A stretch of 64,000 nt of DNA, from the NCBI GenBank assembly GCA_964248365.1, contig CAXTYC010000021.1:1-64000 (forward strand). The letters run 5' to 3'. Source of the stretch: an uncultured Chroococcidiopsis sp. (lineage in GTDB: Bacteria > Cyanobacteriota > Cyanobacteriia > Cyanobacteriales > Chroococcidiopsidaceae). The notes below the pieces were generated by a model that was not told where the DNA came from, searched no databases, and worked only from the letters and a program-made list of their open reading frames with translations. A program made the translations under genes and the position numbers. Shown one piece after another: positions 61,316 to 64,000 of this stretch; the first letter of the stretch is position 1, and each line of letters starts with the position of its first letter.

Positions 61316-61422
61316 CGGCGGGTGCGGGACTTGAACCCGCAATCCCCAAGATGGTGGAGATGTTACCGATAACCCTAAATTCTTCGTCCCCTAAAGGCAA
61401 GGATTGAATCAGGGAACCCGCC
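61316..61422 (-). ncRNA. tRNA-like Y-RNA candidate, copy downstream of TROVE (no D arm)
   Basis: GGCGGGT/ACCCGCC acceptor stem, GCGGG-TTCAAGT-CCCGC T arm, shared core CCTTGCCTTTAGGGGACGAAGAATTTAGGGTTATCG. Confidence 0.7.
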
Positions 61423-61540
61423 ATATTTTAAGAAAGCAGGGGGATCTGGGGGAGCTGGGGTAGCTGGGGGAGAGTTATCAGTGACCAGTAACTCCTGACC
61501 AGTGACCCAATCCCAACGCCTCTAGCCCCTAGCCCCTCTT

Positions 61541-63151
61541 TCAGAGTTCGTCTGTCGCCAGCATCTGGATAATGCGAGGTATGCCAGGATCGAACCCTCC
61601 CAAATCCCAAGAAAGTGGATCTTTTGGATCTACGGGGGTAATTTGGTAAGGTGCAAGGGTAACATACACCGCCTTGATGTTGGGATTCACTTTTTCGCGG
61701 TACTTTGCTAGTGCTTGACACGGATGTTGATAACTATTTCCCCAGCTTTCAGAATCAGTCCAGAAGCAGATGACATCTGCCTTGAACTTGTTGTTAATCA
61801 TCCAGTCGTAAGCTACAGATGCATCTGTACCGCCGAAGTTTTGGTTACTAGCTTTCTTCACAGCTGAACTGAAACTATCTTTGCGGGTAATGCCCAAGTC
61901 GCGGAAGTCAGTAGCAAAACCACGAATTATATAGTTTTTCTCGGCTTTGGCTGTAGCAAGTGCCATTGTGGTAACAATCTCACAGCAACTAAGTCCTACT
62001 GACTGCACAACGCCGCAAGACATTGAACCAGAGACATCAACAGCGTGCATAAACACTTTGCCTGTTGGTTCTACAACGTCGAAAGACATCTCTAGTGCTT
62101 TTTCGAGGATGTCCACGATGCGGGGTACTGGTGTCCAGGTTTTCTGGCTACGTCCTAGCTTACCGCCAGACTGATAAGTCTTGAGTGCCTTGAGGACATC
62201 AATAGGGTGAATTCGCCCTTTACGCAGATGTTCTCTGTTGTTGAGGACAGATTCAACTCGATCTAAGTTGCCACACATATTTGCAACTTGCAATACACCT
62301 AGTTCAGTCAAGGAACCAAGGTTTCGTAGCATGGCCGTAATGGGCATTTCTAGAAATAGCAACTCCCAAGCCTGCTTGTCCATTTTAGCAACGGGTGCAG
62401 CCATTTCATGGGTTAAGCGTCCTTTGGCGATCGCTTCATGCACTTGATTCGGATTTCGCTTCAGCCACTCATACCACCAAATCTGCGCCAAAGCTTCATT
62501 TGGAATTTGGGCGGGTAATTCCTCCCAGCCTTTAATTACCCACTCAAATAGCTGTTGGTGATCATAGGTAGGTGGTTTGACATGGAACAAGCGCAAAGCA
62601 TCGCGGTGGGAAAAGTCTAGACGTTGCTGATATTTCAACAACTGATAAGCCAAACCTTTGACATCTTCCCTTGATAACCAACTTTTACCCGCCTCCCGTA
62701 CAATTTTGCCAAATCCGCGTAGAGATTTGGTGTAGTTCAGCCATTCGTAAAAGTGGATACCAGTACGGACAACTTGTGAGAAGATTTCGGTAAAAGCTTT
62801 TTTGGCTGCTGGGGAATCTCCCATCGATAGCAGTACTAAAGCGAATATCGGCGCACTGTTGTTAATGGCGCGTCCATCGCTAGCATAGAGGATTTCTTGG
62901 GCTACACGGGCAGGATCGAGAGCGATCGCTTCTCTTAAAACCGAGACAAAATCATCTGTTAATTCCTGTTTACCAGCGTAGTATGTGCTTTTTGCTGTAC
63001 CAATCAATAAGCAGCGCCGCAGCATCTGCCATATACCAGCATCAAACATGAAACCGCCAGAACGTCCCTGGATCATTTCAGCTTCCCGTCCAGGGATGGG
63101 CTGAGTTTGGGGCATACCAGTATTTTTTTTATTGAAGAATTTGTAATTCAT
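61541..63151 (-). CDS. rsr: Ro60/Rsr TROVE-domain RNA-binding protein (536 aa)
   Basis: GGFMF...LRRCLLIGT...YY, KYQQR..FSHRDALRL.H, MPITAMLRNLG, RIHP, vWA MIDAS DVSGSM, GGTD, TDSE; start at ATG 63151 (MNYKFF). Confidence 0.93.
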   Translation of the reverse strand: MNYKFFNKKNTGMPQTQPIPGREAEMIQGRSGGFMFDAGIWQMLRRCLLIGTAKSTYYAGKQELTDDFVSVLREAIALDPARVAQEILYASDGRAINNSAPIFALVLLSMGDSPAAKKAFTEIFSQVVRTGIHFYEWLNYTKSLRGFGKIVREAGKSWLSREDVKGLAYQLLKYQQRLDFSHRDALRLFHVKPPTYDHQQLFEWVIKGWEELPAQIPNEALAQIWWYEWLKRNPNQVHEAIAKGRLTHEMAAPVAKMDKQAWELLFLEMPITAMLRNLGSLTELGVLQVANMCGNLDRVESVLNNREHLRKGRIHPIDVLKALKTYQSGGKLGRSQKTWTPVPRIVDILEKALEMSFDVVEPTGKVFMHAVDVSGSMSCGVVQSVGLSCCEIVTTMALATAKAEKNYIIRGFATDFRDLGITRKDSFSSAVKKASNQNFGGTDASVAYDWMINNKFKADVICFWTDSESWGNSYQHPCQALAKYREKVNPNIKAVYVTLAPYQITPVDPKDPLSWDLGGFDPGIPRIIQMLATDEL

Positions 63152-63159
63152 TTGCTTTT

Positions 63160-63177
63160 CTCGTCCCTTTCGGGCAA
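63160..63177 (-). promoter_or_regulatory. Y-RNA-core-like hairpin in the TROVE 5' UTR
   Basis: TTGCCC-GAAA-GGGACGAG lies 8 nt before the ATG and is a compensatory variant of TTGCCT-GCAA-AGGACGA in the ncRNAs. Confidence 0.55.
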
Positions 63178-63187
63178 AAATGAAAGA

Positions 63188-63341
63188 TGGCAGGGCAGGA
63201 ATTGAACCCGCGACCAGTGGATTAACGATAACCCTCAATTCTTCGTCCTTTGCAGGCTAGGTTGTGAACTAGTAGGGGCGGGTTTAAGAAAAATACTTGT
63301 AGCCACACAGAAAATTCAGCCAAACCCGCCCCTACCTGCCA
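63188..63341 (-). ncRNA. tRNA-like Y-RNA candidate with a REP hairpin in place of the D arm
   Basis: TGGCAGG/CCTGCCA acceptor stem, GCGGG-TTCAATT-CCTGC T arm, core CCTAGCCTGCAAAGGACGAAGAATTGAGGGTTATCG. Confidence 0.6.
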
Positions 63342-63505
63342 CATGAATGGTTTTGTATAGGGGTGGGTTTAATAGAGATATCTGTAGCCACACAGAAAAT
63401 TCAGCCAAACTCGCCCCTACCTGCCACATGAATGGTTTTGTGTAGGGGTGGGTTTAATAGAGATATCTGTAGCTACACAGAAAATTCAGCCAAACCCGCC
63501 CCTAC
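63272..63505. repeat. Tandem array of three REP-like hairpins, period 85 bp
   Basis: Units start at 63272, 63357 and 63442 (GTAGGGG[C/T]GGGTTT...AAACCCGCCCCTAC) with near-identical spacers. Confidence 0.85.
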
Positions 63506-63523: not shown

Positions 63524-63696
63524 TGGTGTAGCGGGGCGGGATTTGAACCCGCGACCTCTCGAACCCTAATCGATAACCCTCATTCTTCGTCCTTTGCAGG
63601 CTAGGGAGCGAGTTTGCGGTGTAGCTGTGCTTCCCGCAAAACTCGCGTGGTGAACAAGGATGTTTTAGCGCTCTACCAAACTGAGCTACCCGCCAC
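63524..63696 (-). ncRNA. tRNA-like Y-RNA candidate with D arm, T arm and encoded CCA
   Basis: GTGGCGGG/CCCGCTAC + A + CCA; TAGCTCAGTTTGGTAGAGC D arm; GCGGG-TTCAAAT-CCCGC T arm; conserved core in place of the anticodon arm. Confidence 0.8.
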
Positions 63697-63774: not shown

Positions 63775-63919
63775 TGGTGTGGCGAGGCGGGATTCGAACC
63801 CGCGATCAAGTTTCCTCGATACTGCTTTTCGATAACCCTCAATTCGTCGTCCTTTGCAGGCAAGGTATGAATAAAGGATGTTTTGAAGTTGCGCTTTCAA
63901 CCACTCAGCCACTCGCCAC
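63775..63919 (-). ncRNA. tRNA-like Y-RNA candidate with D arm, T arm and encoded CCA
   Basis: GTGGCGAG/CTCGCCAC + A + CCA; TGGCTGAGTGGTTGAAAGC D arm; GCGGG-TTCGAAT-CCCGC T arm; core CCTTGCCTGCAAAGGACGACGAATTGAGGGTTATCG. Confidence 0.8.
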
Positions 63920-63932
63920 ATGGATTGTTTTT

Positions 63933-63996
63933 GTAGGGGCGGGTTTAATAGGGATCTGTGCGGTTACACAGAAAATTTAGAAAAACCTACCCTTAC
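63933..63996. repeat. REP-like hairpin (degenerate)
   Basis: GTAGGGGCGGGTTT...AAACCTACCCTTAC with the same ACACAGAAAATT spacer as the 85-bp array. Confidence 0.7.
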
Positions 63997-64000
63997 AGGG

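Follow-up and report, generated by a model that had tools for sequence, protein, structure and literature searches.

A conserved Y-RNA-like hairpin over the ribosome-binding region of rsr suggests autogenous control of a bacterial Ro60 protein

Introduction

In the leaders of the ribosomal-protein genes for S15, S8, L1 and L20 and of thrS, the mRNA mimics the main RNA target of the encoded protein over the initiation region, and in such mimicry operators a stable RNA titrates the repressor. For the bacterial Ro60 proteins (Rsr), published models assign to the Y RNAs the tethering of Ro60 to PNPase or the gating of the Ro60 cavity, and control has been described at the level of transcription (RtcR). 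In vertebrate Ro60, H187 is a Y-RNA contact and the bulged C of the Y RNA is the primary binding site (PMC4030889). Chen et al. 2014 (PMC4201824) described for bacteria the Rsr motif GNCGAAN0-1G, related there to the vertebrate GGUCCGA strand, and their supplement holds predicted cyanobacterial YrlAs near rsr. According to the same paper, Deinococcus Rsr free of Y RNA has activities of its own, which are inhibited by bound Y RNA. In Anabaena PCC 7120, TrcR represses translational-stress genes including rtcB (PMC10272220, PMC8421152), and the main texts of these two papers mention neither Ro60 nor TROVE.

The available text of PMC4201824 describes no leader element or autoregulation, and the available texts of 10.1101/312249, PMC12135203 and PMC7790460 describe no rsr leader element or Rsr autoregulation. 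Literature searches that covered few subscription papers returned no rsr leader element, Rsr autoregulation or Y-RNA-mimic operator. What appears to be new here is a conserved rsr leader element, probably of the known mimicry-control type; the element itself is strongly supported and its mechanism is proposed. It was analysed in a 64,000-nt stretch of DNA from an uncultured Chroococcidiopsis sp. (the window), positions beyond this stretch being given on contig G000:C21.

Results

The gene behind the hairpin (Table 1) belongs to the Ro60/Rsr family. Both the TROVE (PF05731) and the vWA_Ro60 (PF25045) domains of Pfam score above cut-off in its product, which matches over its whole length Deinococcus Rsr (2nvo, E 1.7e-66) and Xenopus Ro60 (1yvp, 1e-65); its D184, R187 and H190 correspond in the alignment to D181, R184 and H187 of Xenopus, so that the contact histidine is kept. 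The start codon at 63151, as placed by a sequence-only reading of this DNA, is backed by an N-terminus conserved among the orthologues. Since the distance from hairpin to start (-22 to -35) does not change in whole codons from leader to leader and an in-frame stop lies at most nine codons upstream in 19 of the 76 distinct leaders, the hairpin is not coding. In this genome the frame is open for 35 codons upstream of the ATG, and some database Rsr proteins are annotated as 556-564 aa long. The genome also has two rtcB genes, unlinked to rsr (G000:C20 44271-45587 and C64 7476-8567).

Read on the minus strand, positions 63180-63149 give the hairpin and the ATG exactly as the sequence-only reading had them. 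The hairpin has 17 bases, and 9 nt separate its end from the ATG (63151-63149). Its pair probabilities are predicted at 0.96-0.99, the same with up to 500 nt of the upstream array added, and U-G/U-A pairs are predicted to extend it to 63180/63158; the folding energy is ordinary (z -1.12; 28 of 200 shuffles fold equally well). The pattern TTGCCYNNNNRGGMYGR has three matches in the window, namely the rsr leader and two Y-like RNAs, whereas 100 shuffles predict 0.04. In the modelled structure, the leader hairpin has the single-nucleotide bulged helix of Y RNAs, the bulged base being A63164 in the energy model and C63163, with a G.A pair, in the family register. The loop-closing pair is C-G in the leader and T-A in the three upstream Y-like cores within the window.

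By membership, the leader hairpin is not a Y RNA: it has no tRNA domain and a partial motif, neither a T arm nor a GGTTATCG tag follows it, and Rfam gives no match over 63151-63180 at E up to 5. Its GACGAG fits the first five letters of GNCGAAN0-1G and fails at the second A (five of the seven fixed letters), and most cyanobacterial leaders carry GGCYGG where this motif would be expected, with GG at the mismatch. The lack of a tRNA scaffold, already pointed out from the letters, holds for the hairpin, but the hairpin starts only about 10 nt past the 3' end (63187) of the last tRNA-like unit. Likewise, the overlap with the ribosome-binding region that had been supposed is seen with the SD of most orthologues, but the SD of this genome is weak, its duplex amounting to -5.6 against about -9.5 kcal/mol in most Nostocales-type leaders (computed with a generic anti-SD, the genome's own 16S 3' end not being found in the assembly).

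Table 1. Features of the rsr locus. Coordinates are window positions except where G000:C21 is given.
Feature	Position	Strand	Remarks
Downstream Y-like unit without D arm	61316..61424	minus	core 61400-61384
rsr / Ro60 gene	61541..63151	minus	536 aa, TROVE + vWA; Pfam domains, structure-sequence matches
Probable ribosome-binding region	63152..63170	minus	weak SD here; orthologues mostly GGGAG/GGAGG overlapping the last hairpin pairs
Leader hairpin, Ro60-type bulged helix with GNRA loop	63161..63177	minus	TTGCCC (63177-63172), GAAA loop (63171-63168), GGGACGA (63167-63161)
Last upstream tRNA-order Y-like unit	63187..63342	minus	core 63259-63243, T arm 63211-63195; no encoded CCA
tRNA-order Y-like unit	63524..63696	minus	8-bp acceptor stem, D arm, Ro-binding arm + extra stem-loop, T arm, ACCA
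tRNA-order Y-like unit	63775..63919	minus	8-bp acceptor stem, D arm, Ro-binding arm (core 63863-63847), T arm, ACCA
Spacer palindrome	63932..64000	minus	window edge
Two further Y-like units beyond the window	G000:C21 about 64384-64239 and 64142-64011	minus
Promoter TTGACA/TACATT with TrcR-type box over the -10	G000:C21 64673-64690		upstream of the Y array

Six tRNA-like Y units flank rsr, five upstream (three in the window and two beyond it on G000:C21) and one downstream, and they have the same bulged helix as the leader hairpin. A typical unit runs through acceptor 5' strand, D arm, long arm, T arm, acceptor 3' strand and ACCA, its long arm bearing the core TTGCCT-GNRA-AGGACGA plus the GGTTATCG tag. 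In the unit at 63775..63919, which has an Rfam tRNA match of 38.8 bits, the Ro-binding arm stands at the place of the anticodon arm; the T-arm/acceptor end of the unit at 63524..63696 matches a tmRNA fragment in Rfam, and the last upstream unit (63187..63342) has a palindromic repeat in place of the D-arm region. ARAGORN detected none of the Y-like units. The Rfam YrlA match is below the gathering score and straddles the unit at 63775..63919 and the next one. In the loci shown, the first elements of an array are an acceptor strand and a D arm, the last are a T arm and an acceptor strand, and the unit downstream of rsr is solitary; from this we infer that the cyanobacterial Y-like RNAs are most likely tRNA-order units, in which the Ro-binding helix takes the position of the anticodon arm, and not permuted YrlA. 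This suggests that some cyanobacterial YrlA predictions may straddle two tRNA-order units. A comparable unit lies 3' of rsr in many orthologous loci, and the rsr genes of Armatimonadota, Chloroflexota and Myxococcota also have units of this kind beside them.

Palindromic repeats of about 70 nt (REP/MITE-like) are inserted in the spacers of the locus (window 64000-63932, 63506-63438, 63421-63353, 63334-63271 and 60229-60167), and one of them displaced the D arm of the last Y unit. The acceptor 5' strand of this unit is duplicated at 63428 and 63343. In the first Y unit, a duplicated 3' strand (G000:C21 about 64332-64300) gives two possible successive hairpins.

For the comparison of leaders, a sample of 401 genomes of the phylum gave 52 matches, 35 of them with a full-length gene of at least 67% identity; loci with a broken or partial TROVE (L043, L044), weak vWA-only matches and loci without an assigned start (L040, L041) were excluded. 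The comparison across cyanobacteria on which the sequence-only reading had staked its hairpin came out in its favor, a structural filter finding the hairpin in 29 of the 35 sampled rsr leaders, where shuffles give 0.32. Among 80 named genomes closer to this one, 79 have it (shuffles, 1.18), but these are mostly Nostoc and therefore not independent. Among the six leaders missed by the filter, L032-L034 have a variant hairpin by eye, none was seen in L024, and in L029 and L030 the hairpin sits instead about 230 nt upstream of rsr, where a short ORF has its SD and ATG just behind it. This ORF, common to both genomes, has about 60 codons (hand reading) with a hydrophobic N-terminal half and stops shortly before rsr, where the hairpin itself is lost. 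Distant rsr leaders of the same phylum had the hairpin in 0 of 5 cases.

Of the 70 distinct cyanobacterial leaders with the hairpin, 61 have the 3' end of the helix at -11 and 68 have it between -8 and -13, and in most the last two G's of the hairpin start the SD. The hairpin, like an operator, abuts or overlaps the initiation region at a conserved position. Its 13 helix positions are 79% identical to this genome (28 of 34 orthologues with hairpin) against 39% at four-fold degenerate sites, and the 5' flank is 62% identical in the same comparison. The loop is a GNRA in 57 of the 70 leaders, and the bulged pyrimidine is C in 50 of 70 cyanobacterial and all 36 other leaders, the filter having admitted C or T only. 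The hairpin is also kept in L035, which has no Y unit within 2 kb.

In the unfiltered alignment of the 35 leaders (L017 being off by one), 87.4% of the cells are paired and 12 cells are changed on both sides; 0 of 500 shuffles came up to either of these values, and every slid register pairs less. These covariation tests are inflated by relatedness, and most changes fall on two pairs, mainly one loop-closing pair. The pair tallies of the filtered set tell which pairs occur, not how often they break, the filter acting on allowed pair types. The covariation originally put forward, a single T-A to C-G change within one genome, is weak alone; the hairpin draws its support from the multi-genome comparison, in which the pairs covary. 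Two other structures were considered. A fold in which the leader pairs with the 3' strand of the last unit was not favored in folding, and a longer outer helix (TTCAT/ATGAA), though it sequesters the SD in many Nostocales-type leaders, was rejected as a core feature since it is broken without compensation and missing from the consensus fold (row L014 of that alignment was entered on the wrong strand).

A scoring model that had as its sole training set the 64 distinct Y-unit cores of 34 other loci gave this leader 21.1, rank 1 of 8,677 candidate starts in the genome, the next scores being 15.1 and 13.4; a score of at least 12 was reached by 29 of the 35 rsr leaders and by 4 of the 8,677 starts genome-wide. 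This ranking bears out the earlier claim that the hairpin is a copy of the Y-RNA core and, as far as such a model can tell, the leader copies the cognate RNA site of its protein, as in mimicry. Among the 8,677 starts we found no second gene with a convincing hairpin copy, and therefore we claim no regulon. In none of 108 leaders does the hairpin equal a Y-unit core from the same locus, and the last base of the motif is A in 428 of 469 units versus G in 65 of 70 leaders. This genome is exceptional on two counts, its leader ending in A and its SD being weak.

Outside the cyanobacteria, 80 bacterial and 80 viral loci were taken, from which 4 and 2, respectively, were removed for want of a usable start. 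The hairpin was found in 21 of 76 distinct leaders from other bacteria (Chloroflexota, Armatimonadota, Myxococcota; 1.36 in shuffles), the remaining 55 having none, and in 15 of 68 distinct viral rsr leaders (0.92 in shuffles). As a control, 4 of 671 other SD-bearing starts in the same distant loci pass a stricter filter, one of them being a Y RNA. In the 36 non-cyanobacterial leaders with the hairpin, the loops have 5 to 11 nt and the helix 3' end lies at 0 to -20; in several, the helix ends 13-20 nt ahead of the start, upstream of the SD. One phage group has a T-A for C-G swap (TTGCTC/GAGCCG), and another (L210, L213, L216, L217) has exchanged G-C for A-T; here the loop contains the SD, and the 3' strand adjoins the ATG. 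Phages L215, L247 and L254 have the hairpin and no Y unit in the 330 nt upstream, and in Sorangium the adjacent Y RNA has A-T where the leader pairs G-C. In three cultured Streptomyces phages the hairpin can be made out by eye, but it begins with A and does not pass the filter; it is absent from one Mycobacterium phage and one Gordonia phage, and a Pseudomonadota-centred sample of 401 genomes gave three rsr genes with the hairpin in none.

An exact scan across GTDB for hairpin, SD and start returned 37 loci, of which 7 lie before TROVE genes (3 of these outside the set used for pattern design) and 30 are upstream of other genes or have no long ORF. About 1,300 stretches of the whole collection match rsr patterns, and rsr is estimated at about one in 100,000 genes; with such rarity, the enrichment for TROVE is large despite the 30 loci elsewhere. 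The viral scan gave 13 of 68, 3 of them new. The element is widespread but patchy, and it is more general than the single-genome view, being present in most cyanobacteria examined, in several other phyla and in phages. On one Candidatus Binatia contig, six hairpins of the leader pattern (L294-L297, L300, L301) lie within 10 kb before paralogous genes for secreted proteins. In L198, L213, L216, L164, L204 and other leaders from outside the cyanobacteria, a complete Y RNA often comes to its end, with TTGCCC or TTGTCC as 3' strand, within 20-50 nt of the rsr start, so that the Y RNA itself could be an operator before processing.

In the promoter of the Y array, a ATACTACA box spans the -10 element as in TrcR-regulon promoters. 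The only other perfect match to ATACTACA in the genome is the published trcR promoter motif (G000:C8 27683-27700), and the small ORF behind it is probably trcR. ATACTAC or its reverse complement occurs upstream in 97 of 123 loci, a loose count with no chance control. We infer that TrcR may control the Y RNA-rsr operon. At the Chlorogloeopsis locus L120, four RNA runs, each from another study, were compared; three of them have a contig that starts at 1917-1928, at the first Y unit, and two of the three continue through rsr, the third stopping at 2356, short of the leader. These contigs, which carry no ends, strand or levels, give a weak hint that the Y units and rsr are transcribed as one operon. 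A gene resembling, by eye, the CCA-adding/poly(A) polymerase family of nucleotidyltransferases (L045 1697-2965, minus, corresponding to G000:C21 about 64696-65964) stops right at the array promoter, on the same strand.

Discussion

By the sequence comparisons, the leader element is real and under selection, has the shape of the Y-RNA helix and is tied to the start codon, not to the Y RNAs. Its position follows the start site, since the hairpin goes with the SD and ATG of the upstream ORF in L029 and L030 and the SD lies inside the loop in L210, L213, L216 and L217. Rsr very probably binds this hairpin. We consider it likely that the hairpin is a conserved copy of the Ro60-binding helix of Y RNAs placed on the ribosome-binding region of rsr, with which free Rsr would repress its own translation while the Y RNAs titrate it. 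A TrcR-type promoter that responds to translational stress would give one transcript with the Y RNAs and the rsr mRNA. The Y RNAs, once processed out, would take up new Rsr, which they may bind more tightly than the leader does because units end the motif in A and leaders in G. When the Y RNAs are saturated, surplus Rsr would bind the leader and block the initiation of translation, so that Rsr would be matched to Y RNA and free Rsr limited. The activity of Y-RNA-free Rsr in Deinococcus would be a reason for such a limit.

In its widest form, to which we lean slightly, the proposal is that Ro60/Rsr represses the translation of its own mRNA. The ribosome-binding site would be covered by a Y-RNA mimic of 17 nt, circularly permuted, which Cyanobacteriota, Chloroflexota, Armatimonadota, Myxococcota and phages have either retained or evolved anew; this mimic would set the Rsr-to-Y-RNA ratio and be the smallest natural Ro60 ligand. 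In cyanobacteria it would act under a TrcR-controlled operon of tRNA-order Y RNAs that have the Ro-binding helix for anticodon arm.

Several other explanations could be considered. Rsr bound to the leader could decide the fate of the mRNA instead of its translation, through the recruitment of PNPase or another nuclease, through processing after the last Y RNA, or by protecting the new 5' end, possibly as a positive control. Rsr and Y RNA do tether PNPase (PMC4201824), the hairpin lies about 10 nt past the 3' end of the last unit, where a processed mRNA would start, and in some phyla the helix ends upstream of the SD. However, the leader has no tRNA-like domain, and PNPase likely binds the T-arm end of Yrn1 according to PMC4201824, in which deletion of the T arm left complex assembly unchanged. 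The hairpin also keeps its distance to the start codon (-11 in 61 of 70) and not to the Y RNA, and in some phages the SD is within the loop; an action on mRNA fate seems to us rather unlikely. It is more doubtful still that a fixed hairpin, borrowed from a Y unit, acts without Rsr, by occluding the SD or stabilizing the 5' end, and so lowers the output of rsr in comparison with that of the Y RNAs on the same transcript. The 5' flanks, where they are rich in pyrimidines, often pair further into the SD (in 76 leaders, positions -14 to -8 have a mean unpaired probability of 0.35) and GNRA loops are found in 57 of 70 cyanobacterial leaders, as would suit a stabilizer, but a stabilizer would need neither the bulge, nor the G.U pairs, nor the fixed letters, all of which persist from phylum to phylum, whereas the loops differ in length and sequence. 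In several leaders, moreover, the outer extension has lost pairs that no second change restores, and the consensus fold does not include it.

The position of the hairpin at the end of a tandem array, the resemblance of the Nostocales-type 5' flank to the outer strand of the units, and an A variant of the 3' strand common to leader and array in 4 of 9 genomes with leader A could be explained by a truncated last Y unit, similar by descent or gene conversion and without function. Such a vestige would hardly show 79% versus 39% conservation, nor the systematic G versus A at the last base with 0 of 108 leaders identical to their own unit, and the hairpin is kept without a nearby array and found across phyla and in phages; these sequence comparisons already largely refute this reading, and we consider it very improbable. 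Less credible again is that the hairpin encodes part of a longer N-terminus or is released as a separate mini Y RNA. The frame open over 35 codons and the database proteins of 556-564 aa would fit a longer protein, but the non-triplet spacing (-22 to -35) and the stops at most nine codons upstream in 19 of 76 leaders speak against coding, and the excision of a mini RNA would take the SD away.

If the autogenous control proposed here is true, the leader mimic adds to Ro60 a sequence-specific role in mRNA regulation, and the Y RNAs titrate the synthesis of their own partner. The hairpin offers a one-hairpin reporter assay for Ro60-RNA recognition, which bears on whether the helix or the 5' strand alone is recognized in bacteria, a question left by PMC4201824; Chlorogloeopsis fritschii, Nostoc and the cultured Streptomyces phages are tractable hosts. 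The promoter data suggest that rsr is linked to the translational-stress (TrcR) regulon of cyanobacteria.

Compared with the described systems, the leader is close to YrlA, YrlB and Yrn1 (PMC4201824; RF02553) in having a strand of the GNCGA type with a partner strand, beside rsr, and the Rfam consensus of YrlA (5' ggCgaA / 3' cUuGuc) resembles the strands of the leader and of the cores found here. In contrast to YrlA, the two strands of leader and core follow each other in the opposite order, with a short loop between them, and unlike all three RNAs the leader has no tRNA-like domain and sits in an mRNA leader on the SD. The metazoan Y RNA (GGUCCGA with bulged C9; PMC4201824, PMC4030889) resembles the leader 3' strand RGGMYGR with its single bulged pyrimidine, and the equivalent of the contact histidine of metazoan Ro60 is kept in this Rsr, whereas the leader is circularly permuted, capped by a loop, mostly ends in G in cyanobacteria and would act in cis on the mRNA. 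The TrcR regulon of Anabaena PCC 7120 (PMC10272220, PMC8421152) has, as here, the ATACTACA box over the -10, and rtcB, part of the RtcR-controlled rsr-yrlBA-rtcBA operon of Salmonella (PMC7790460), is also present in this genome in two copies. Both systems are transcriptional layers, whereas the hairpin would act after transcription.

By analogy with the mimicry operators, the rsr leader as proposed would have its copied target overlapping the initiation region and a stable RNA as titrator; unlike in S15, S8, L1, L20 and thrS, the target mimicked would be a Y RNA and the protein a Ro60 ring.
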